Notes under the pieces: model-generated
What the model was told of the DNA's origin: nothing
The model's input: only the letters and a program-made list of their open reading frames with translations
Database searches by the model: none
In this document: one piece after another, positions 5,002 through 41,361 of the stretch
Position numbering within the stretch: position 1 is the first letter of the stretch
Layout of the letters: each line of letters starts with the position of its first letter
Source of the DNA: Eledone cirrhosa
Taxonomy: Eukaryota
Direction: 5' to 3'
NCBI GenBank assembly: GCA_964016885.1
Contig: OZ024752.1
Location: forward strand, 37,696,001-37,760,000
DNA length: 64,000 nt
Translations under genes and position numbers: made by a program

Positions 5002-5121
5002 ATGGCTTTGGATTTAGTTAAAGCTAGACTCCGTACACTTGCGGACCAACTAACAAAAATTACTGAAGAAAGGGATGACTTCAAATTAAAGTTGGATGCT
5101 GAAAAAAATGCGAGAGAAGCA
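5002..5121 (+). CDS. TPM: Tropomyosin exon 1b (first coding exon of the short/low-MW isoform)
   Basis: caaaATGG start; 40 codons MALDLVKARLRTLADQLTKITEERDDFKLKLDAEKNAREA; phase-0 donor GCA|GTACGT matches the phase of exon 3; resembles vertebrate exon 1b (..EAVKRKIQ...ERRAREQ). Confidence 0.85.
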
Positions 5122-18708: not shown

Positions 18709-18842
18709 TGTGAATCTGAAATTGCTGGTCTGAACCGACGAATTCAGCTTTTGGAGGAAGATCTTGAACGATCAGAAGAGAGGCTGACAACTGCCCAATC
18801 TAAATTAGAAGAGGCTTCAAAGGCTGCAGATGAGAGTGAGAG
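18709..18842 (+). CDS. TPM: Tropomyosin exon 3 (single copy)
   Basis: Polypyrimidine tract then cag|; 134 nt; [44 protein letters not shown](R); donor AG|GTAATG. Confidence 0.97.
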
Positions 18843-22879: not shown

Positions 22880-23821
22880 CGCCCTTCATAGGCCCTGTGT
22901 ACTTTATAGTAGTAGGATTAGCTGTACATTGTAAGATATATGGTGGCATTATGTGGAGTGCCATTGCAATCTAGACATATGTTAGTGATTTCTAGATCTG
23001 TTCACCTACAATGATCAGTTGTACTAGTGTCTACCTTGTTTTTTTGTGGTAGACAATCTTCTTCCTTATTGATCATGAGCATGTCTGATAATGGGTGGCT
23101 GGCCTTTAGTTTGGTAGCCATGAATCGTGTAGAACAGCATTTATGACATGGAGCCATATCCTCAGTGGAATACAGATTGTGCTATCAAACTACCAAACTT
23201 ATCTGAGGCATAGTCCTCATTACTTAAGTTCTCCTCAGAAGTTTTATTGTTAAATGACTTCCCATTGAAACAACCGTATTGACAGAAATAGTCATGAGTG
23301 TAATATGACTTTAATATTAGCAATGGTCTTTTTTAGAATTACCAACTCGGTCTTTATTTACAGAATTGTCAATGTCATTTTGACAAATATGAACATTTTT
23401 TTTTTTTTTTTTTTTTTTTTTCTCTGGCATGTATGTAGTTGAGCCTACCTTTGCATGTCTGTACTCACTACAGAAAACTTATTACAATAGTATAGCTGGA
23501 TGGTGTTTTTGATGTTACTGTGTTAAGCTATCTTTATTTCAAGAAACATTTTATTAAGATTAAAGATTGAACTTCGCTTGATTATTATAGTTTCTCTATA
23601 TATTTACTTAAAGAAAGTATGTTACATGAAAGAATAATTTTGTCACCACTAAACTACAGTAGGATTTTCATAACATTACTATCATTCAATATTTTTTTTT
23701 TAATATTTACTTTACTGGCAAAGTAGAACAAAATACTATCTAATTCTTACTGTGTTCACTTAATTATTCCAAGTTTTGTGCATGTGATTGTATGTTCTGC
23801 TTTTGCTGTGGTGGTGACTAG

Positions 23822-23939
23822 ATCTGTCCAAGTGTTGAGAAATCGCAGCTCCATGGATGATGACCGCATTTGTGATTTGGAGCAGAAATGCAAAGATGCA
23901 GAGCTGTTTGCTTCTGAAAGCCAGAAAAAATATGATGAG
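23822..23939 (+). CDS. TPM: Tropomyosin alternative exon 4a
   Basis: tag|, 118 nt, open in the correct phase: (R)SVQVLRNRSSMDDDRICDLEQKCKDAELFASESQKKYDE; donor GAG|GTATGT. Confidence 0.88.
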
Positions 23940-24000
23940 GTATGTTGTACTGGCCACTTAGTTTGCATGCACATATTGACACCATTTTTTCCCCATTCAG

Positions 24001-24118
24001 ATCTAAGAAAGCACTAGAGAGCAGAGGTACACACGATTATGACCGAATCTGCCGTCTAGAAGATTTGGCAAGGGAAAATACACAAATTGCCGTTGATGCA
24101 GAACAGAAATACGTCGAG
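24001..24118 (+). CDS. TPM: Tropomyosin alternative exon 4b
   Basis: ttttttccccattcag|, 118 nt: (R)SKKALESRGTHDYDRICRLEDLARENTQIAVDAEQKYVE; donor GAG|GTATGT. Confidence 0.88.
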
Positions 24119-24454
24119 GTATGTTTACGTCAGACGTGTTAAGCACAGTTAATTTAAAAACAGTACGAAAATGATTTAAAGGTGTGAACAAAGAAGCAGA
24201 CGGTTGTTATATATCTATATATTACTTTTTTATATTAATATTTATTTGTTTTTATTTCAGTGTATAAAACAAAGGCTTGTTCATTGTGAAACAAAGTCAC
24301 ATGGTTTTTATTATTATTATTATTATTATTATTAATTGACATATTTCTTTCAGTGTCTCAAATTTTTTTTTTAAATGTCCATGAAGTTGATATGCTGAAA
24401 TTTGGCCTAGTTCATTTCGATTTAACTTTTTATTCTTCCACTGTCCGCTGGCAG

Positions 24455-24572
24455 AGCGCTCAAAGTACTTGAAAACAGGAGTCAAGTTGATGATGAAAGG
24501 ATAGATCAACTTGAGGCTAATCTCAAAGAAGCTAAGTACATAGCTGAAGAAGGTGATCGCAAATATGATGAG
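24455..24572 (+). CDS. TPM: Tropomyosin alternative exon 4c
   Basis: cag|, 118 nt: (R)[39 protein letters not shown]; donor GAG|GTGATT. Confidence 0.93.
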
Positions 24573-24773
24573 GTGATTTTACGCACCAAGTGTATGCATG
24601 CTTTATTCACTAAAGGTCAATTCACTACAGTTGAACTTCATATTATCAACATAATAATATAAATAATGAAGCCACATCCGTTTATAACATAGTTAACCCA
24701 ACTAATACTATCGCCTGCGCTTTCATTGTACCAATTTCTTAACTTATGAGCAATATCTGTTCTGCACCACTAG

Positions 24774-24891
24774 AGGGCGCAAAGTGTTGGAAAACAGGAG
24801 CCAGGGAGATGAAGAACGTATCGACTTACTGGAGAAGCAATTAGAGGAAGCCAAATGGATTGCTGAAGATGCTGATCGGAAATTTGATGAG
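24774..24891 (+). CDS. TPM: Tropomyosin alternative exon 4d (canonical muscle form)
   Basis: tag|, 118 nt: (R)[39 protein letters not shown]; donor GAG|GTGACA. Confidence 0.96.
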
Positions 24892-25419
24892 GTGACAGCT
24901 TGGCGTTTGCTGTGCCAGCCTGATGAATTTGGCAAAGTGTTATGATGCTTTCGGAAAAAAAAATGAGATTTTTGACCCAAATTTGGCATTGCATTGTTTT
25001 TGAAGCCAAAAAGTTTGCTTGGCACTTTTAGAACTCAGATGAAATATGTTTACAGTTCCAATTTCTGCAAAAAAAAATTTTTTTAAATAATAATAAAAAA
25101 AAAAAAGAGAAATGTAATTAGAAGAAAGACTCTAGAAGAAATAATAGTCATTAGTTTTAGTTGTAGTAATTAATGCATGATTTTACAAATGTTTTAAAGG
25201 CATGTTAAATGACCTTGTTCATATTGGTATTTTAATTCAGGATAATGTGTTAAAATGAAGTAGGTAGTTATATAATTTAGTAAATTGTTATCTAACATAG
25301 TGTAACTCAGATACTAATCTATCAGATTAGATGCCTACAGCGTGTTTAGTACTAAACCGTGTTTTGTTAAAATTTGATGTTTTCATTTTGCGTGTGTGTG
25401 TGTTCGTTCATAATTGGAT

Positions 25420-25590
25420 TTTTTATTATTTTTTTATTTTTTAGTTTTTATTTTTTATTTTTTATTTTTTATTTTTTATTTTTTATTTTTTATTTTTTAT
25501 TTTTTATTTTTTATTTTTTATTTTTATTTTTAAGATTCCTTCAATTTGATTTAATTTTGTAACATTTTACTTTATTTTATTTTTATTTTT
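25420..25590. repeat. (TTTTTTA)n low-complexity tract
   Basis: Directly visible. Confidence 0.85.
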
Positions 25591-26780
25591 TTAATCCAAA
25601 TTAATTAGATATTTTAACGATAGGGTATTATCTACTAATTTAGTTATTTACATATCCTGTTTGGAATTCTTTAATAATTTTGTTCAATAACTTACTGATC
25701 AAAATTCATCATATTTTATAATTAATGAGCACATTTTTAATTTAATTTAATTGTATTTTATAATTAACGACCACATTCCACATTCTAATTTAATTTAATC
25801 TTAGACAATACAATACTCTTGACTAAATAATTTGATTTTGTAAGATTTGGAGGAATCTTAAATTTGGCATTTTTCAAACCAGATATTGATATAATTTTGT
25901 ATTTATTATTTGTCTTTAAATTCTTCATCATTATCATTATTGTTATTTTGTGCATTTTTCTATGCTGGTTATTTGTTTTTTGTTTTTAAAGTTCTTGTTA
26001 CACTGAACTTCACATATGGAACATGCAAAACATTATCAGACAAACAGTGTTAGTACAAGAAACATGGCGGAGCATGTGCATACACACATATATATATATA
26101 TCATTAGCTAGTAAAATAGTGCTTACGCCATATTTTGACTAAGTAAATTAGTCTATTAGTTGGGGTTATAAAAAACCCATAGAATGAAAAAAAGGGATGA
26201 ACATTGACGTACATGGGACACCAAATTATCCGCTGTTTGTAAACAAAGCCAAGCTTTGTATCTTCTATATACATATATATCATGATTTTCACATCCGTTT
26301 TCCCATATTAGCATGGGTTGGACAAGGTCACTTTTCTTGTATGTTCTGCTACAACCAGATGCCCTTCTTGGTGCCAACCCATGCCTTTATTCTAAATATG
26401 GTACGGTACATGTCACAAGTCTTTTTATCGCACCAATGTGCTGCCTGACATTGTTTGTGGGGAACATAAACAGCTCTCACTGTTGGTTTGTGTGTGTCAA
26501 TGGCATTGGATGTGCCTGGCGCACACACACACACACACACAGATATGGTTCTTACAGTGCCTATTCTACCAAATTCAATCGCAAGGCATTGGTCAGCCTG
26601 GAAACATTCACCCCAAATGTCTTGGAGTGGGGCTAAAAGTAAATCTGCATAATGCAGGAGTGATTTTATTAACCACACAGCTATGCACACATCTAAATAC
26701 ACACACACACACACATATATATATATTGACCTTTTATCTATGGATATCTTGCATATATATATATAATGTATGTATATATA

Positions 26781-27282
26781 CAGATGATGCTGTTATAAAA
26801 AGGTGCAGAGCACTAGAAGTTGATGGAAACCGCGGAGTGGGGAGACCCAAGATGACTTGGGATGAGGTGATAAAAGCCGACCTTACCCAACTACACCTCT
26901 CAAAGTCAATGACACACGACCGTGACTTCTGGCGTCACGCAGTAATACAGGGTACCCGACCTCCCATGGGTACATGCTGAAGCATATAAACAATATGCCC
27001 CCACTCCCCCCACCGCAAGGTGGTCGTGGAGGTGCCACGGCAAAAAAGCACCCAGCCCACACTGTAAAGTGGACGTGTAGGTGCCACGAAAAAGCACCCA
27101 GCACTCACTGTAAATGAGGTTGGTGTTAGGAAGGGCATCCAGCTGTAGAAATCAAGCCAGATCAGTTCCTGTATGAGCAAGGCATGGTCAGCCGACCAGA
27201 CACTGCCCACAACAGGACAACCCGTCTAACCCATGCTAGCGTGGAAGAACGGACGTAAAACGGTGATGATGATGATGATGAT
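26781..27282 (+). mobile_element. 5'-truncated RTE LINE (same family as 17572-18176)
   Basis: KRCRALEVDGNRGVGRPKMTWDEVIKADL...DRDFW, then 3'UTR and GGACGTAAAACGGT(GAT)n tail. Confidence 0.85.
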
Positions 27283-28140
27283 ACACACATACACACATAT
27301 ACATTGTAAGCATATCAAAACGGATCAGGAAACTCAATGCATTAGGATATTTATATATATAATATATTATATTATATATTTGAGAAACAACTTAAAACTG
27401 AATGAATTAAGCCTCATAAATGCCCTTCATATAATAATATATGCCATCTTACGGTTGAGAGAAAAACTATATTAATATCTGGTTCTTTGTATTTTGTCAA
27501 AGTAGATTTTTTTTTTATTTTTAGTTTGTTTGTTTGTTTGTTTTTGTTGTAGTTTTTTATTTTATTTTATTTTATTTTATTTTATTTTATTTCTTTAGTT
27601 TTTTTTTTAAACATTAATCAGAATTCTTTAAATTTAAAACTATCATTGAAAACTTTAAATAACCAACAAAGGAACAAGATTATATTTATTAATTTGTGAT
27701 TTTTTTTATTCCTATATGCAAAAACATTTTCCATGTAAACTGAAGTGTGTATTTCTTTATAAAATATATTTTCTAAATTTAAATTTACTCTTTTGTTAAT
27801 AATGAATTGGTATATTTGTACATATTAACATATTTTTATACATTAAATGAGAAAGATAATAATATTCTTCCATGTATATATAAATATTACTTATTTTATT
27901 ACTGTAAATTCTTTTTAAAACGTTAAGGTTGTTAATATAGAATTTTGTAAAATTATATATATATATAATATATATATATATATAAAAAAAAAAAAGAAAA
28001 TTGCATGATAATTCAGTACATAGATTATAAAGGAACTTGCATGTTTTATGGGAATGCGTGCAAGCTGTGTGCCACTAATGTTCAGCTACTAACACAAAAT
28101 CTTTAAAGAACATAGTGGTAACACATCTTTCTTAACGCAG

Positions 28141-28211
28141 GCTGCCCGTAAACTGGCAATAACAGAAGTAGACCTTGAGCGTGCTGAGGCCCGTTTAGAG
28201 GCTGCAGAAGC
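28141..28211 (+). CDS. TPM: Tropomyosin exon 5a (canonical)
   Basis: cag|, 71 nt: AARKLAITEVDLERAEARLEAAE(A); donor GC|GTAAGT. Confidence 0.97.
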
Positions 28212-28314
28212 GTAAGTATTTTATTTTTCTATATATTTCTCCATCATGCAGTCCACAGCTGACTTGCCTCCCTTTTTTCTTCTTTTTTTTTCTACCTTTT
28301 ATCTTTTTCACTAG

Positions 28315-28385
28315 ACAGTACGCAGACTTAAAGTTGTTGAACATGAATTAGGAATTGCTGAAGAAACCAGCTTACATAATAAAAG
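28315..28385 (+). CDS. TPM: Tropomyosin alternative exon 5b (divergent)
   Basis: Long polypyrimidine tract then tag|; exactly 71 nt: TVRRLKVVEHELGIAEETSLHNK(R/S); donor AG|GTTGGT; keeps R167, L169, E173, L176, A179 and E180. Confidence 0.8.
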
Positions 28386-31131
28386 GTTGGTTATTTGGTA
28401 TCAGTCTTGTCGGAGAAAGGAAAATGATATATGCTATCAGACCTGCTAAACATTGATCTCCTGGCTTTATTATGCCAGAGACTGCTTCAATCATACCAAC
28501 GTTAATTTTCCACACAAAAAAAAACCAACCTTGAGTAGCTTTCCAAGTTGATTACTTATGATCTTTGAAACTGTTGGACTGTGAATGACACAGTCAGAAA
28601 GCTGTAGAAATATGATACACAACATCTTAATGGATGTTTAGTTATCAATGATTATAAATCATTTAGTTATATTTAGTTCTCTCAAAAATTATAACTCATT
28701 TCATGTAAATTTGAGAAGAGAAAAATGTGTTCATGGAATTCATTTTTATTTTATCTTTTTTTTTACATTCAGCTTTAGATTTATATTTTAGTTGATTTGT
28801 TTTTATTTTTATTTTTATTTTTATTTATTTTTGTTTATAGTTTAGCAAATTTTAATTCAAAAGTTACATTCTTTTTTATTTATATATTTGTTTATTTATT
28901 ATTATAGTAAAATTGATTATGTCTGCATATTTTTTATTAATTTTTTTAAAGCAATCTGATGTTTTATTTATTTGCTATGGAAATCTTTCGGATTTTTTCT
29001 GCATCTTGTTCTTTCTCAATTTTATGCTAACCATTATTGTAGTCACTAACTCCATTCCTTTACACTCTTCCAACTTCAATGTAGAGACTAGTTAACTGTG
29101 CTTGGATTTGCTACCATTTGTGGTAAGAATTAATGCTGGAAATTAAAACCATCATAGACAAATTAGACTTTACTAATGGATCATGGTGCTGTCTGATAGC
29201 ATGTTCCATTTGCATAACATTTTCTCTTCCCTGCCATTATCTTCAATTTGAAATGAAAGAAAGAAGCAATAATCTTTGCAACTCTTACAGGTAATTCAAT
29301 GTAATTTCTAATCTAATGTTAATAAATTACATTGATACATTGATTTCTAATCAAATTAAATTCCTTATTATGGTATTTGATTACATTGTTCTTTTAGAAC
29401 TATACATTAACAGTTTGTGTGAATATTTCATTAACTATTTCTGCTTAGATATTGCCTGCCAATCTAAAATATCAATAAATTCCCTTATGTAGTTTTACAG
29501 ACTTTATCTGATGGCAGCAATATTATTGGATACAAGTCAGAGTTTTGTCTGACATCAAATATTATTGCTTCTTTTATTTATGGAAATATTTTCTACAAAT
29601 ATTTCCATTTTCTTTTTCTTTTTTTTTTCTTTTTTTTTTTTCCTAATAAAAAAAAAGAAATCTTAGAATGAGTATTTACTTTCTGTCAAAAGACTTAAAT
29701 GAAATGTTACACATTTAAAGAAATATATATATTGTAAAAATAACTTTTTATATATATTTGTTTAATACTCATTGTATGATTTTTATTTTTCTCAATATCT
29801 TTCTCAAATCCAAGATAAAACTTATTAATGAACAACTGCTCAGTAAAGAGAATTTTTACAAATTTCTCTCTATATATACTATGAAGTATACTGAGCTATA
29901 CATTTGGGCTTTCCATCAAAAAATATATTTTCAAAATATGTTCTGGTGTTTTCTAGAAAAAAACTATATTTTCAAAATATGCCCAGGTGTTTTCTAGAAA
30001 AAAATCTTTCTAGATTATACTGAATAAAAAGAGTACTACATTATATCTATATGATATACCCTTGCCTCATAATTTGTTGCTGTTAAAGTAGCATTCAGTG
30101 CCTTATGCAACAATATTGCAAAAAAAAACATTAAAAGGGTTGAATAATATTAGATTATTTTTGTCTTAGTTTGCATTTTTACTAATTCTGCTATTTAATA
30201 TCACCATAATGCTTTGCTTCTTTCAATAGCAACAACTAATGTTCTATTAACTAATTGATTAAAACTAATTCTACTAATTAAAGTTGGATGATAACTTTTA
30301 ATTTAGTGATAAATCTTTGAACTCTTTCAGAATTCACCATAAAAGTATTAAAAAATGGTCCAATATTGACCATTTTCTACATAATTCTTCTCCATTTTCA
30401 AGTTCAATGACATAGGTTGCTGAAGGATAGGTGAATTCACACCTGTGTTCATATCCTTTCATCTACCTAACATTGACAATATATATATTTACATATATAC
30501 ATATTGGAAATCAAATTGGTGAAATTAAATTCTTCAATGAGGGACTTATATTATTGTTTATCATCCAGCTTCTTTTAGAACATGATTTCTCTAACTAAAA
30601 AACTCCACAAACCATGTTGTCCCACCTATTTCATGCTTATCTTAGACCTACTTCTTCAGCTTTCACACCCACTCCACTTGCTGCCTTTCTTCATATTCCC
30701 CTTAGCTTAAAATTTTCTCCCCTCCCTCCTTCCCACTCTTCAAGACTTTAAAACATACCCTTTTCAGTTTTAATTCATTTTAAAACTTTCCAAGTTTTAA
30801 AATATTCAACTCCTCCACACCCCATAAATGATAGTTTATCTGTAAGAAACTTATTGAAATTAACTTTGATTTGGGTGACACACATGGACTAATTCTGTTG
30901 ACTGACACAATTATTTCCCCCATTATTGATAAATGTTTTTATGTAGATTTATTTAAAATATTTTGGCTCAAAAATTCTTTCCACAAATAATTTTTGGAAA
31001 CAAATTATACTTTCATATATATTTCATTAAAAAGAATCAGAAAAATTGAATAGTCTTCAATGGACATAACAAAAAATAAAACTATGTGGAATGTACAAAT
31101 TGTTTGTTAAAAACTCACCAAAGTTATCTTA

Positions 31132-31339
31132 CCCTTTAGCATTTACATTACTCTATATTTACTATTATATTTTCACAGTAAAGGCTTTACCTCACATAAT
31201 AACGAATCTATGAGATTTTGATATTATTTATTTTGAGAACACTACCTTAACATCAGTATAAGCGGCTGGTTACAGCCAGTTTGAACAGAACGAGGTCAGA
31301 GAATTCTGGCTGGATATAGCCGGTTTAAATGCTAAAGGG
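31132..31339. mobile_element. piggyBac-type MITE
   Basis: TIRs CCCTTTAGCATTTA / TAAATGCTAAAGGG with TTAA on the right flank; same family at 57073 and 61389. Confidence 0.8.
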
Positions 31340-31544
31340 TTAATAGGAAAAATTCTATAGTACAAAGAGTTCCATGTCAAGTTATCATTAATGGAGCTCT
31401 TTGTTGTCATCTACCCTCCCGATATAATCCTGTGTCAGTTAGCTGATTTTTTTTTTTTCTTCCGCTGGCAAGCCTTCGAAAGGAAATTACTAGTCAGTTT
31501 TCCTAGCATGTGACTGATAGCATGTGTGCTGTTGGATTTTATAG

Positions 31545-31620
31545 GCGAGCAAAACAGTTGGAAGATGAAATGAGCCAAATCAGTAGAAATCTCAAATCAC
31601 TACAGATTAAAGAAGTAGAG
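31545..31620 (+). CDS. TPM: Tropomyosin alternative exon 6a
   Basis: tag|, 76 nt: RAKQLEDEMSQISRNLKSLQIKEVE; donor GAG|GTAAGC. Confidence 0.9.
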
Positions 31621-31875
31621 GTAAGCTAGTTGTGGTAACTTGTTGGTAATGTTTGATGTTTTACTAATTAGTTCTCTTTTTAGAAGTCTTCCTACGAATC
31701 ATTATCAATATACAAGGATGCAAAAATATTTGAAGAAACTTGTAAGATTTTGGGGGGGTAAAAAAAATTAAAATTAAAATTTTGAAAATCTTACAGGTGT
31801 TTCAAATATTGTGAACACTTGCAATCCTTCTATTTTGATACATGGTGATTTTTTTTTTTTTTTTTTTTTTTTTAT

Positions 31876-31906
<31 letters not shown>

Positions 31907-32118
31907 GTACCTTGTACAACAGAACAATTTATTAGAAATCTCAATTGGCTTTTTCTTCTCTCTGTTGCTGGTTCTGATTTGGCTGCCTAAGAAGCTGTTT
32001 TGGCATAATGCTGGTTGTGGGCATGCACTGCCTGGACTAGAAACTTCATTGGTCATCTATTTGGCTATCCCCTCCCCCCTTCAGATAATGATCCCTGTTT
32101 TCTCTTATGCCATTACAG

Positions 32119-32194
32119 CAAAAGGCTTGACATTGAAGAACAGCTACATGTAGTTGGTAATACTTGCAAAACAATTGAGGTCCAATGCGAACAG
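32119..32194 (+). CDS. TPM: Tropomyosin alternative exon 6b
   Basis: cag|, 76 nt: KRLDIEEQLHVVGNTCKTIEVQCEQ; donor CAG|GTAAGG. Confidence 0.9.
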
Positions 32195-32255
32195 GTAAGG
32201 TGCCAATGGGCAGGTCGCAATGCTATTTCTGATCATTCTGCATTCTGTATTACAG

Positions 32256-32331
32256 GAAAATCGTAGAGTTGGAGGAAGAGTTGAAGGTTGTGGGCAACAA
32301 TATGAAATCACTGGAGATCAGTGAGCAAGAG
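32256..32331 (+). CDS. TPM: Tropomyosin alternative exon 6c (canonical muscle form)
   Basis: cag|, 76 nt: [25 protein letters not shown]; donor GAG|GTAACG. Confidence 0.97.
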
Positions 32332-32606
32332 GTAACGCCACACCTGCATGGTGTTGTTCGATGACGTCAACAAGCTTGAAGCCTCTTGCATGATGAAAAA
32401 AAAATATATTAAAACTTCAGCGCTTTTACATTTTCCCACCCTAAAATGTAGATTCAAACAATTTTCACAATAGTCTATTAACTGTCTGAAATTGATTATT
32501 TTGAAGTGGATGGCCTTAATATATTAATTATATACTGGGTTTTGAAGATATAATTGAAGCCTTCATAATTTTGATACATGTGGTAACTGATGACAGTGTG
32601 TTGTCA

Positions 32607-32802
32607 ATGAAAATCTATTTGGTTTTTGTTTAAACCTATATGAAAATCTATATGGTTTTTGTTTAAACCTATATGAAAATCTATATGGTTTTTGTTTAAA
32701 CCTATATGAAAATCTATATGGTTTTTGTTTAAACCTATATGAAAATCTATATGGTTTTTGTTTAAACCTATATTGAAAATCTATACAGTTTCCGTTTAAA
32801 CC
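32607..32802. repeat. 33-bp minisatellite (5 copies plus a degenerate 6th)
   Basis: Unit ATGAAAATCTATATGGTTTTTGTTTAAACCTAT. Confidence 0.95.
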
Positions 32803-34596
32803 AACCATTAAGCTGAATCCACTAGATACATCTGAAATTTAAGCTTTAGCATATTTCAAAAATTCTGTACAACTTTTTAAATATACTAGTTTCTCCGAGT
32901 AACCGATCATTTCAATAATAAATGATCATAGCCTGTCATTTGTTAAAATATGTAACCAGACATATTAAAGCTATCTTAAGAATGAGATTTCTTTTCCATA
33001 CATTATATTTATTATATATATGTACATATATAATGTGTAATGTTCACAAAATTTACTGTAAAAACGTATTATAAAAGCATCGACAGAGTTTGAAAAGTTC
33101 ATACATTTGATATATCTTTGGAAATTACATATCTATATTCAATCTCATTCTCCTCCTTTGATATGGACTTGATTGCAAAACAGTTATAACTTCTAAATCT
33201 TAGTATTTTAATATTTTTTTGCTTTAGATATATTATTTTCTCTGGTGGGGTCATATAATTTCTAATGTTTTAGACAAGAGCTTGCTTTTAACTTTTGTAT
33301 GAATTGAAAGTCATTTTATTTGAATGACTTTTATATTTAATTTTAATTTTTTTTTTTTTTCAAAAAGCAACCAATCCCTTTAATTTTACTGAATAGAAAA
33401 TTATGCTTGGATTTTCTAACCAGTTACTGAAACAGGCTTGTGTTAGGGAATTTTATATAATTAACTTTTTAAAAAATAGACAACAAAAAAAACATCGTAA
33501 CTCCTATATAAGAAACACCAAATTTATTGTGTGGTGTGCTTAAAACCAACCAAAGTGTGATTTATTCAATGATTAATCCCATTTTTCAGCTGTTGATAAC
33601 AGTGTTTGAGATTCAAGTTATACTGCAGCAAATCTTTATATAAATTTCATAGAATTTAAAATATCAAACAGAAAATAAAAAAAATAAAAATATCAAAGTT
33701 AACAATTGCAATTGTGATATTTCCAAAAATGTATATTCTGCTAATTTCTTGGGTCTCAAGCATCAGTCCCTATTTGTAATATTGTAGTGTGAGTGTCTTG
33801 TGGACATCAAAATTGAAAGTAAAAAAATTCTATTTAATGTTTGTATTTCTGTCAGGTCTGTTAGTCTGTCTGTCTGTGTGAGGGTGGGTGTGCACGTGTA
33901 TGTACTTACATTCACTCAAACATGCATGGTTGTGTGTATACATACATGTATATATGTATATATATATATGTATATATACACACACACACATGCACATGTT
34001 ATACATAGAAAATATGTACAGTGGCATCACTTAATTTAAAGATAGGTATCCTAATCATTAAATGTTAATTATTTCTGTTTATGTATTCACACTTCAGACT
34101 ATATATATATAGTGATTTTTTTTTTTACTCTTAAATTATCTAAGTTTAAACAAAGATATTGGCTTCATGCAGTTGTTGACAGTAATGTCATTTGATTTAA
34201 GAAGATTTAAAACAGAAATTTTTCTTTCAACAAAATGGAGTGTCTATATTAATTAATTGAGAAGAATAAAATCCTATGGTTTTAATATCTGGTCAGGTAA
34301 CCAAAATATTTCAAAACAGAATCACATCTATAAGGCATTAAATCTAAATATATTGAATGTATCAGTTCGTCCTTTTATTAATTATTTTCACAGCTGCCCT
34401 AATTAAGGACAGTGGAAATAGCCACCAGTTTCATTAGTCTAGTGAGCAGCTACTGAACATCCAGCTTCAGCAGGTATCGTCCCCCAAAAATTCGGCTTTG
34501 GTTTATACAGTTGAGCAATTCTTGGTGATAAACCTTTTCATTTACCCATCACAACATATCTTAGGAAAATAGTTTGATATTTAGATAGCATACAAT

Positions 34597-34880
34597 ATTA
34601 TCATCATTGTTTGATGTCCATTTTACCATGCTACCATGGATTGGACGAGTTGTCCCATTGTGAGAAAAGTCAGATCAGGTGACCATGTCTTGCTCATATA
34701 GAACTGATTCTGGTTTGGTTTCTATGGCTGGATGCCCTTCCTAACACTAACCACATTTACGTGGACCAAAACGACCAATTGACAGGTTGGACTGGGTACT
34801 TTTACATTGTGTCGCCAGCGCAACCACCTTACAGGGTGAACCAGGTGTTTTTTGTTGTCACCAACATGACCACCTTGCAT
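34597..34880 (-). mobile_element. RTE 3'UTR / RTE-tailed SINE remnant
   Basis: ttctatggctggatgcccttcctaacac motif shared with 17690 and 27130; related pieces at ~190-370, ~16790-17060, ~46985-47150 and ~51960-52300. Confidence 0.65.
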
Positions 34881-35254
34881 TAAAAATTTTAATATTCTTT
34901 GAAAATGTGGTTTTTTTAGGGGGCTTTATTTCATGCTTAAACTTACATCGAGTAAAAGAAAATGTTTCTTTAATATATATATTTGGAATTTTAAGTGATA
35001 ATAAGTAGAACTGATTAACATTTAGTCATGAATATACTTTTATCTTTAAACTAAGTGATGTGACTGTATAAACAATTAAAATTTTCCCCATTTGGTCCAC
35101 TTGACATTTTTTTTTTTTTTTTGTGCATGACCAACTTTCAGACAGTACAATTGAAACAAACTCAAATATTTTTCTATGGATTCGTGCCTGACAACTTCAA
35201 GTAATTCTCTTTGGGTTGTATTTATCATTAGAGTCAATACTGTCAAACTACAAT

Positions 35255-35600
35255 CATTTAAACTACTGGCAAACTTCATATGTAGAGCATGGGTGCTGTT
35301 GAACTTTGCTCATAGAGTGAATATGCTGGTGAACTTGAGTCATAAAATAAGGTTACTGGCATACTTCATTCATAAAGTGAGGGTACAAGTAAGGGGGATA
35401 GTGAACTTTACTGATAAAGCAAGGGTACCTACAAACTTCACTCATAAAGCAAAAGTACCACCAACAAACTTCAGTGATTAAGCAAAGGTGCCACCAGCAA
35501 GCTTCACTAATAAAGTTAAGCTACAAATGAACTTCTCTCGTAAAGCCAGGTTATCAGTGAAATTCACTCAAAGTGAGGATACTGGCAAGCTTCACTCTTG
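35255..35600. repeat. Degenerate ~30-bp minisatellite (~11 copies)
   Basis: Recurring AACTTCACTCATAAAGCAAGGGTAC-like unit. Confidence 0.75.
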
Positions 35601-36044
35601 GAATGAGGGAATCAGCTCACTATGCTGTTCAATAGCATTCTTTTTTTTTTTAACCTTTACTATATCTAAGAATCCATTCTTATGTTTAGTAGTTGACTTG
35701 TTTCATTTGTATAGCTGATTTCTAATATAATTATGAATCTTGTGCATTAATAATCAACTGGATCTTAACATTAAACTTGTATTATAAATTTAAATATATT
35801 AAAGTAAATACATATTTGCAGTTTTCAGTTCTCTTACATTATTTATTCATTATAAATTTTTCCATCCAACTTCATTCCTTCAAATAACTAAAACCTTTTA
35901 TTAATTATAAAATAATAGATAAATAAATAAATAAATAAAGACTTTCTGCAACATTGATTCTTAAAGTTTGATTTTTAGATCCAGGTGTTAATAATTGAAA
36001 ACTGTTGGTTATTCTGTTTGCTTATATGGACTTATGTTTTCTAG

Positions 36045-36107
36045 GCCTCCCAAAGAGAGGACAGCTATGAAGAAACTATTCGAGATCTGACACACAGACT
36101 GAAGGAG
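36045..36107 (+). CDS. TPM: Tropomyosin exon 7 (single copy)
   Basis: tag|, 63 nt: ASQREDSYEETIRDLTHRLKE (includes conserved E218); donor GAG|GTGAGA. Confidence 0.97.
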
Positions 36108-36547
36108 GTGAGACTTTTTTTCTTTTCTTAATAACTATTCTCATTGGAATTATCTACTTTTATCTTAATAACATCAGCTCAAAATCTACCAAAGAAGCTG
36201 TAATATAAACATACATATAGTTTATTGACCATGGCCTCTTGTTTTTCTTTGAGACTTGCATTCTTCAAATCTTACATTGATGTCCTGAGAATATTTTAGT
36301 GTTACCTGCTAACATTAAAATTGAAACCTGTGTAGATGCTAAAAGGATGTGAAGTGTCATTTTTGAATTGTCACTTGATGAAAATTATATATATATATAT
36401 AATGGGTATGAATCGAAGTTGTAACTGTCATATATATATATAAAGGAATTCTCATTTGGAGAGATACATATGAGATGTATCTTTAATAAAGCAAGCATCT
36501 CAGCTAACAGGAGGAACTTTTGTCTGCCATTATTTTTTTATCTTGAG

Positions 36548-36731
36548 GGCGGTGGATTGGTAGTATCGGTAGAGGGTCGGACGCCATGCTTTACAGCATA
36601 GTTACGTCCCTTTACAATCTGAGTTCAAATCCCGCCGAGGTTGACTTTGCCTTTCATCCTTACGGGGTCGATAAAATAAAGTACCAGTAATGCACTGGGT
36701 AATTGCTGGCCTTGTGCCTAAAGTAGAAACA
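36548..36731 (+). mobile_element. tRNA-derived SINE with Nin/Deu-like domain and 19-bp TSD
   Basis: B box GAGTTCAAATCCC, then GACTTTGCCTTTCATCCTTACGGGGTCGATAAAATAAAGTACCAG; TSD ATTATTTTTTTATCTTGAG at 36529-36547 and 36732-36750. Confidence 0.88.
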
Positions 36732-37975
36732 ATTATTTTTTTATCTTGAGCAACATCCTTATGATGAAATGATAAACATCTTTGCCTAGAAGATTTGGGC
36801 TTCTGCTCTTTGAGGTGCATAAAGAATCATGCATATTCTAAAACCCTTTATGTTGAAAGAACCAAATTATTTTGATAGAAATATGGTCACAAAAGGTTTT
36901 TTTCTTTTTCTCTTTTTTTTTTTTTTTTTTTTTTATATCAAGTTTCAAATTTTAATAACTAATTCTGAAATGTAAAAGATATTATATAGACAATTTTTAT
37001 AATTATTGATTTGTTTTTCTTCTCAGCAGCACAGGTTATTTCACAATATAGTAGTTTCAAATTTATATTCCTTTAACTTAAAATTAAGGTTATGTTTTCA
37101 ATTCTCTGATGTTTCTTTAGAAGAATTCCATCAGTTTCTTTAGAAGACATTCTTTATTTAGGATGTAATCTATAATGAGTTTCAATTATTATCATTGAAA
37201 ATATTATTGATTTTCATTTCTCAAAATTAGTTCTAAGCAAAAAATCAATATTTTGACAGATTCTTTATTATATTCTTCAGCAATAGATTTGACATTTTAC
37301 TGTTCTATTGCACAATCAAACAACTTTTCTAAAAGATTACTTGGTATCTCTATTATGGAATGATATGAACCCATAGGGGCTCCATAGTAGCATGCACTGT
37401 ATCTAGGGCATTTTAAAACCTGGGGGAGTCCTTCTCCTCTCCAGGTCTGAACATGGCAGATTTCTTCCAGAGAAGGATAAAAAGAAAGGAAGAATTAAAT
37501 AATACATAATTCATTATAACTTTATATGATGTATTTATACCATGAAGTTGTGACATGTTTACTGGTTATCAGATGAGACACAATGTTTTAATGGATTAGA
37601 TCCTTGCCACTGATTTATGGTAGCTTTTGTATTGTCTCACAAAGAAGATTAAAGATTATTTGCTTCACTTTATTCAATGAGTGAGCTGAGCAAATTCAAC
37701 TACAATACACTGCCATCTTATCTCATTTATTTAATGAGTTGTTTTAATATTCAAATGCTAACCAAACAATATTTTGTTTATTGTTTTAAAACTTACATTT
37801 GAAGAAGAATATGCTGGAAACTTAATTTTGTTAGGTGTAATTAATTGAAATGTTGTTGAAACATTTTTCTCTAGATTCTGCATGGAGAGTTGTTCTTACT
37901 TTTCATTTCATTTGTTTGTTTATTTATTTGTTCTACATGGTGTTTCACTGGCCTCCTGTCTTTGTCTAATGCTAG

Positions 37976-38045
37976 GCTGAGAACCGTGCCGCTGAGGCTG
38001 AAAGAACTGTTTCCAAGTTGCAGAAAGAGGTTGACAGACTGGAAG
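37976..38045 (+). CDS. TPM: Tropomyosin exon 8a (canonical)
   Basis: tag|, 70 nt: AENRAAEAERTVSKLQKEVDRLE; donor AAG|GTATTG. Confidence 0.97.
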
Positions 38046-38271
38046 GTATTGTCAAAGACTGTGTGTCTTTGCTTGTGTGTGTTTGGTTGTCCTTGTTGGT
38101 ACAACAGAGCTGCTATTGCTGTTTTAATTTAGAAAAACTTGGCAGCTCTCTATCACAGATAGTCTCAAATAACAGCAGACATTATTGTTGTATTCACTGC
38201 TAACTGCATGTATAAAGTTAAAATGCATGGCTTTGGTTGTCTTATAGATGTGATTCTAATTAATTTATTAG

Positions 38272-38341
38272 GCTGAAAATCGTACAGAATGTGCTGAGCG
38301 CGAATGTAACCTGTTACATAAAGGAAAAGAGGTGTTAGAGG
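38272..38341 (+). CDS. TPM: Tropomyosin alternative exon 8b
   Basis: tag|, 70 nt: AENRTECAERECNLLHKGKEVLE; donor AGG|GTGAGT. Confidence 0.9.
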
Positions 38342-40192: not shown

Positions 40193-40281
40193 GCGATTTG
40201 GAGAAAGAACAGCTGAAGACTAAGAAGCTGCAGGAAGAGATGCAACAGACTTACATGGAGATTCATGAACTTATGCAGTAA
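40193..40281 (+). CDS. TPM: Tropomyosin alternative terminal exon 9a (non-muscle-like C-terminus)
   Basis: Branch-like cctgac then cag|; phase 1: (G)DLEKEQLKTKKLQEEMQQTYMEIHELMQ*; heptad pattern aligns with exon 9b. Confidence 0.9.

Positions 40282-41253: not shown

Positions 41254-41361
<108 letters not shown>

Follow-up and report, generated by a model that had tools for sequence, protein, structure and literature searches.

Tandem alternative exons and their cysteine sites in an octopod tropomyosin gene

Exon set of the gene

The 64,000-nucleotide (nt) stretch of Eledone cirrhosa DNA analysed here (contig OZ024752.1, positions 37,696,001 to 37,760,000 of the forward strand; hereafter the window) contains most of an octopod tropomyosin gene, encoded on the + strand of a 3.0 Gb genome, in which several duplicated exons carry cysteines. 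Octopus vulgaris and O. bimaculoides have closely related records, and the gene in the window is identical to neither. Scanning each canonical exon across the whole window and translating the hits by coordinate located exons 3 and 7, two terminal exons and four sets of duplicated exons: four copies at slot 4 (118 nt), two at slot 5 (71 nt), three at slot 6 (76 nt) and two at slot 8 (70 nt). Copies within a slot are adjacent and homologous, share length and phase and have splice sites, and AG/GT boundaries and an open frame are present in all the exons; exon 5b scored only at the noise edge of the scan, but annotated proteins and a spliced contig confirm it. All three divergent-exon isoforms compared with the Tropomyosin profile (PF00261) scored 182-207 bits against a cut-off of 38.6, the heptad register is unbroken and free of proline, and Asp137 occupies a d position in all four exon-4 copies. 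Alignment of a 4a-5a-6b isoform to vertebrate alpha-tropomyosin 81-277 needs no gaps, and the residue numbering of the initial annotation, colinear with that register, was retained. By sequence, the gene is a tropomyosin with tandem alternative exons, a known kind, with 4 x 2 x 3 x 2 x 2 alternatives at its internal and terminal slots behind three first exons. As for a second tropomyosin gene, the animal's own genome holds at least one locus, and only the present locus turned up.

The coding part of exon 1b (5002..5121), a short non-muscle-type alternative start, lies inside the window and begins 10 of 26 annotated isoforms, while exons 1a and 2, which belong to the 284-residue form (L004:6566-7623, located by translation), and the long first exon 1c lie upstream of it. 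Exon 3 (18709..18842) is constitutive, encodes residues 81-125 and in run X1 is joined to both 4a and 4d; with residue 1 taken as heptad a, it carries C81 at d. The exon-4 cluster consists of the divergent exons 4a (23822..23939), with C142(b) and C148(a) and spliced contigs in runs X1, X9 and X13, and 4b (24001..24118), with C142(b) in its translation, followed by the near-canonical 4c (24455..24572), assigned by translation and family comparison, and the canonical, probably muscle-type 4d (24774..24891), which is dominant in run X5. Canonical exon 5a (28141..28211; translation, spliced contigs) precedes the strongly divergent 5b (28315..28385), for which a 4a-5b joint is found in run X9; 5b is the most divergent copy of all, with 6 of 23 residues identical to 5a and a net charge of 0. 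Translation and Octopus isoforms identify the divergent exons 6a (31545..31620) and 6b (32119..32194), the latter with C204(a) and C211(a), and translation and family comparison the canonical 6c (32256..32331). An 80-nt stretch between 6c and 7 (34394-34473), bounded by AG and GT and soon interrupted by a stop when read in the frame of exon 7, is possibly nothing. Constitutive exon 7 (36045..36107; scan, translation) is followed by the canonical 8a (37976..38045; translation, family comparison) and the divergent 8b (38272..38341; translation, Octopus isoforms, family comparison), which carries C241(c), C246(a), H250(e) and K253(a). The terminal exons are 9a (40193..40281), probably of non-muscle type, which ends 19 of the 25 full-length isoforms retrieved, and the canonical 9b (41279..41361; translation, annotated isoforms).

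The initial annotation had assigned seven cysteines to the divergent exons, and all seven sites and heptad positions, in tandem copies of the same length, were recovered. Translations of exons 4c, 4d, 5a, 5b, 6a, 6c, 7, 8a, 9a, 9b, 1a, 2 and 1b contain no cysteine, which confirms that canonical 4d, 5a, 6c, 8a and 9b lack it; the divergent exons 5b and 6a of the same interval are cysteine-free as well.

Abundance, placement and conservation of the cysteines

The six divergent exons hold 7 cysteines in 174 residues versus 1 in 268 in the other exons (Fisher p 0.007, a post hoc value that rises to ~0.14 once 20 amino acids are allowed for). Compared with the tropomyosin family, 7 were observed and 0.76 expected (Poisson p 1.5e-5); the family rows, which numbered 107, 125, 108 and 60 per slot out of 149 representatives after those below a score threshold were dropped, were picked by likeness to the canonical exons and under-sample divergent copies. 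The initial annotation had stressed that these cysteines sit in the coiled-coil core, and four of the seven do occupy a or d positions. However, so do 30 of the 50 V/I/L/M/F/A residues in the same exons and 41 of 46 family cysteines, 32 of them at a, so the core placement of the octopod cysteines is no signal beyond chance; with three of seven on the surface they are, if anything, less core-bound than usual. Cysteines of the window exons are spaced 5, 6 or 7 residues apart, with no pair 3-4 residues apart. C148 lies between two lysines and C204 beside one. C148 stands in place of leucine, C204 of methionine, C246 of valine and C211 of glutamate (alanine in vertebrates). These are not isolated substitutions: 7-11 conserved family positions are altered per divergent exon, many of them acidic and some of them core sites such as R190 and K253, versus 2-3 per canonical exon, and the lowest fit to the family profile belongs to the cysteine-free 5b and 6a, making cysteine one change among many.

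Against the two Octopus species, 38 of 39 residues are identical in 4a, 23 of 23 in 5b, 25 of 25 in 6b and 22 of 23 in 8b, versus only 29-30 of 39 in 4b and 20 of 25 in 6a (4a versus 4b, p 0.007). Introns around the near-invariant 4a, 5b, 6b and 8b differ by about a tenth. All six cysteines of 4a, 6b and 8b are retained in Octopus isoforms, as is nearly all of those exons, and Octopus 4b has an extra cysteine, C143. Exons 4b (24001-24118) and 6a (31545-31620) evolve much faster than their sister copies, with frame and splice sites kept. In a more distant genomic reading frame (P0005), 4a is 31/39 identical, with C148 kept and threonine at 142, and its flanking intron is kept as well (14 of 15 codons' worth upstream). 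The gastropod Batillaria (P0050) carries three copies of exon 4 and two each of exons 5 and 6, all lacking the octopod cysteine sites. Cysteine conservation, proposed in the initial annotation as a check, is seen in two Octopus species, but the distant 4a has lost C142 and the Batillaria copies lack these cysteines altogether. Word-based searches returned Octopus records and one cluster only, with no squid or cuttlefish counterparts, and a profile search showed no close copy of 5b, 6a, 6b or 8b among the 150 of 167 matches listed; neither is evidence of absence, because the former need shared 5-residue words and the latter hides isoforms in 50% clusters. At the nucleotide level, run X1 shows 0/121 base differences from the window in 4a and in 4d versus 3/27 in exon 3 (counted by eye), which points to constraint at the RNA level on 4a and 4d. 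Over 23778-23985, spanning 4a and flanking intron, three runs show 0-1 differences per 120 nt.

Exon use, splicing signals and the first exon 1c

The run search listed 24 runs with the 4a/4b stretch, 18 of which were guessed to be RNA and none of which is on record as RNA. Contigs of four runs from related animals were compared with 23500-25040, the exon-4 cluster only, taking contig depth as a rough guide. A 4a-5a joint was present in all four, in X5 with the upstream intron retained. In X1 it lies in a 170-nt contig containing 4a that runs from the last bases of exon 3 into the first bases of 5a, with no intron cover; X9 has both 4a-5a and 4a-5b joints at similar depth; and X13 has the 4a-5a joint, with 4d missing from its contigs. 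Contig depth in X1 was 1723 for 4a versus 841 for 4d, and 4a also exceeded 4d in X9, with the reverse in X5, which contained mostly 4d, 4a only together with its upstream intron, and a 3-4b-intron-4c-5a piece. No cleanly spliced 4b contig was among those listed for the four runs. Exon 4a thus seems to be no rarity and to alternate with 4d between samples. Annotated isoforms and the spliced 4a and 4d contigs have one copy per slot, and the X5 contig with 4b and 4c retains the intron between them. Because no copy length is divisible by three, including two copies of a slot would shift the frame, and the 61-nt introns between the sister exons 4a/4b (23940-24000) and 6b/6c (32195-32255) may block or hinder their joining.

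Among 26 annotated octopus isoforms with exon 3, in models likely built on short reads, 9 contain 4a and 17 contain 4b; 16 start with 1c, 10 with 1b and none with 1a-2, the start of the 284-residue muscle form. The initial annotation had envisaged an isoform combining 4a, 6b and 8b, with four a-position cysteine pairs. Exon 6b is present in 7 of the 25 full-length isoforms and 8b in 6, but the two never occur together (P 0.10 under independence); 4a co-occurs with 6b in four and with 8b in one. In this incomplete sample the four-pair isoform was not seen, and it may still exist. With their 1b or 1c starts, the isoforms make exons 4a, 4b, 5b, 6a, 6b and 8b look like non-muscle exons, as do the motifs described next.

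Rbfox proteins repress exons from upstream motifs and activate them from downstream motifs. Of all 5-mers, GCATG showed the strongest enrichment around the alternative exons (within 150 nt), at 15 in 3052 nt versus 32 in 32112 nt (p 6e-6), about fivefold, while the reverse-strand control gave 4 versus 26. One such Rbfox-type motif (23780..23784, + strand, found by the 5-mer scan) lies 42 nt upstream of 4a. Within 70 nt upstream, GCATG is found at 4a, 4b, 6a, 8b and 9a, or 5/7 non-muscle-type exons versus 0/8 others (p 0.007), a grouping and width picked after viewing the motif list; at 100 nt the counts are 6/7 versus 1/8. The motif also lies downstream of 4c and 6c. GCATG is the RBFOX motif, and RBFOX2 represses non-muscle exon 6a of rat Tpm1 (PMC8419188). 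Docking-type RNA pairings were also considered, but the inverted repeats near the four clusters are short or of low complexity and no pairing elements stood out.

Exon 1c (L003:5833-6426, by translation), the start of 16 of the 26 isoforms retrieved, is an alternative first exon that encodes 198 residues, charged and low in complexity, with a helix at the end. Judged by match ranges, this terminal helix resembles one that sets Drosophila atypical Tm1 (Tm1-I/C) apart; in Tm1-I/C the stretch makes the chains antiparallel, binds kinesin and is described as present in Drosophilidae (PMC8247599). A similar segment lies ahead of residue 81 in 13 of 42 representatives examined, including springtail, spider, Trichinella and Schistosoma, which suggests that a 1c-like helix exon may be protostome-wide; no passage on a spread beyond flies was found in the excerpts of the Tm1-I/C literature. 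Searched alone, exon 1c had no relevant match among solved structures and no Pfam family. Much as in atypical Tm1 (PMC8247599), a long low-complexity first exon is joined to residue 81 and appears to end in a helix extending the coiled coil, but most octopus 1c models retain the complete C-terminal coiled coil in place of a shortened one: 15 of 16 run through exon 9, with P0024 stopping after 5a.

Possible roles of the cysteine-bearing exons

The account that we consider probable, though by no means secure, is that the divergent exons produce splice-tuned non-muscle or cytoskeletal tropomyosins with a predicted looser and less acidic coiled coil, in which reduced cysteines serve as small apolar residues. 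Copies 4a, 4b, 5b, 6a, 6b and 8b would likely replace the canonical exons in non-muscle cells, with one copy chosen per slot, and an Rbfox-type protein would repress the divergent exons in muscle through the upstream GCATG motifs. C148, C204 and C246, in place of the larger leucine, methionine and valine, would loosen core packing, and C211 would replace a buried glutamate; the looser coil could then tune actin affinity and partner access, as alternative exons of worm and vertebrate tropomyosins do. The cysteines probably stay reduced. In vertebrates, Cys190 is among the destabilising residues of exon 6b (PMC8152229) and is mostly reduced in healthy muscle (PMC6274839). A small core residue was the fallback in the initial annotation, and it is the best fit to the data, heptad a being the usual cysteine placement in the family.

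Several known systems are close to this one. Vertebrate TPM1 exons 6a and 6b are mutually exclusive internal exons that differ in cysteine, stability and actin binding (PMC6274839, PMC8152229, PMC8419188), with a cysteine at heptad a and RBFOX motif control of the non-muscle exon, but vertebrates have a single such cysteine, 190, in the muscle exon, whereas the octopod canonical exons are cysteine-free and each divergent exon has at most two (142, 148, 204, 211, 241, 246) across four duplicated slots. Exons 7a/7b/7c of C. elegans lev-11 are also tandem copies, one of them, 7c, highly divergent, lacking conserved acidic residues and used in a short isoform; 7c loses charged residues and shows that actin binding can be abolished by an exon of this sort on its own (PMC10512467). 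Unlike the octopod set, known from sequence, the worm exons have measured actin binding and no reported cysteine theme, the word 'cysteine' occurring 0 times in that text. Other protostome tropomyosin genes, as in Batillaria P0050 and arthropod- and nematode-type records, have slots 4, 5 and 6 duplicated into one canonical and at least one divergent copy, but the copies seen lack the octopod cysteine sites.

Several observations weigh against the preferred account. Cysteine occurs at about ninefold the family rate, and small-residue packing leaves the choice of cysteine unexplained. No family slot-row among 400 has two cysteines in one slot, versus three octopod exons that do, and cysteine is rare or missing at the same sites in the family (C148 0/107, C204 0/108, C211 0/108, C241 0/60, C246 0/60, C142 1/107). 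Three of the cysteines are at outer b or c positions, where a packing role does not apply. Use of 6b and 8b is known from gene models alone, because the run contigs were compared over the exon-4 cluster only; the isoform sample is incomplete, came from searches aimed at 4a and 4b and includes 14 accessions from O. vulgaris, in a series whose numbers span 35; and non-muscle use is an inference because the tissues of the runs are coded.

The excess of cysteines, 7 versus 0.76 expected, counts in favour of a redox-sensitive tropomyosin, the possibility raised in the initial annotation. Here splicing would select a form in which C148, C204, C211 or C246 pair in in-register homodimers, or are glutathionylated, on oxidation, stiffening the chain and lowering its affinity for actin. 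We regard this as rather unlikely. The exons behind it are real and conserved, all six a/b/c cysteines of 4a, 6b and 8b are kept in Octopus isoforms, the distant 4a keeps C148(a) while losing C142(b), cysteines are paired within single exons, and the 4a+6b models (4/25) would give three a-position pairs plus C81. Neighbouring lysines can raise thiol reactivity, and C148 has two and C204 one. C148, C204, C211 and C246 share heptad a with vertebrate Cys190, which cross-links and reduces actin affinity (PMC6274839); by this precedent the octopod a-position cysteines should cross-link in the test tube. However, in Octopus the cysteines are no more conserved than their neighbours, in exons that seem constrained at the nucleotide level, a is where family cysteines usually lie, and the gastropod divergent copies at slots 4, 5 and 6 lack them. 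No full-length isoform combines 6b with 8b, the 4a+6b+8b form is unseen, and none of the 26 isoforms has a 1a-2 start. Moreover, 4a-5a and 4a-5b are co-expressed in one sample, where heterodimers may form, and the cytosol is reducing. A titles-level literature search found no study comparing disulfide strain between a and d positions. Binding of zinc or another metal by cysteines across the dimer, also raised in the initial annotation, is poorly supported and strikes us as extremely unlikely. Metal-binding coiled coils of the Cys/His kind place ligands 3-4 residues apart and supply four donors. C246(a) and H250(e) of 8b are four residues apart and both kept in Octopus, and two chains could give two cysteines and two histidines, but this is the only such pair: no two cysteines are 3-4 residues apart, other histidines are 6 residues from a cysteine, and each a site offers only two thiols.

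That the cysteines arose as a tolerated side effect of relaxed selection on minor duplicated exons appears improbable for the set as a whole. Exon 4b differs from Octopus at 9-10 of 39 residues versus 1 of 39 in 4a (p 0.007), varies in cysteine count through C143 and has no cleanly spliced contig among those listed, and 6a differs at 5 of 25 residues, but 4a, 5b, 6b and 8b are near-invariant between introns that differ by about a tenth, 4a is well represented in three of four runs, and a more distant animal retains its flanking intron, with 14 of 15 codons' worth conserved upstream. The drift reading suits 4b and 6a only. Off-actin roles of the divergent exons and their cysteines in 1c-start isoforms, such as partner binding or lipid modification, seem very unlikely, although 16 of 26 isoforms begin with 1c, three cysteines are on the outer surface, and crystal chains of atypical Tm1 match a 1c isoform from 20-25 residues ahead of exon 3, with equal lengths on both sides in the match table. 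The corresponding Tm1 extension is said to account for the antiparallel fold and for the binding of kinesin (PMC8247599), and if the 1c helix made the chains antiparallel, a-position cysteines would not face their twins. The atypical Tm1 coiled coil is shortened, however, whereas nearly all octopus 1c models reach exon 9; exon 1c alone has no match to atypical Tm1 structures; and the likeness was read from match ranges.

While the splice-tuned account is preferred, one extension of the redox idea, unlikely in our estimate, is that splicing selects the number of cross-linkable cysteine pairs (up to three or four in the core plus C81) in the main non-muscle tropomyosin, a graded redox switch without a muscle counterpart. 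A literature search at the level of titles found no account of the octopod exon set or its cysteine sites beyond automatic gene models, and the extent of the set and the cysteine sites seem to be new. The choice of tropomyosin isoform determines the role of an actin filament. If oxidation of these cysteines is functional, octopods would have splice-selected redox control of the cytoskeleton; if it is not, the gene would be one more case of exon duplication tuning tropomyosin. The octopod exon set is a natural series for testing core cysteines outside position 190.

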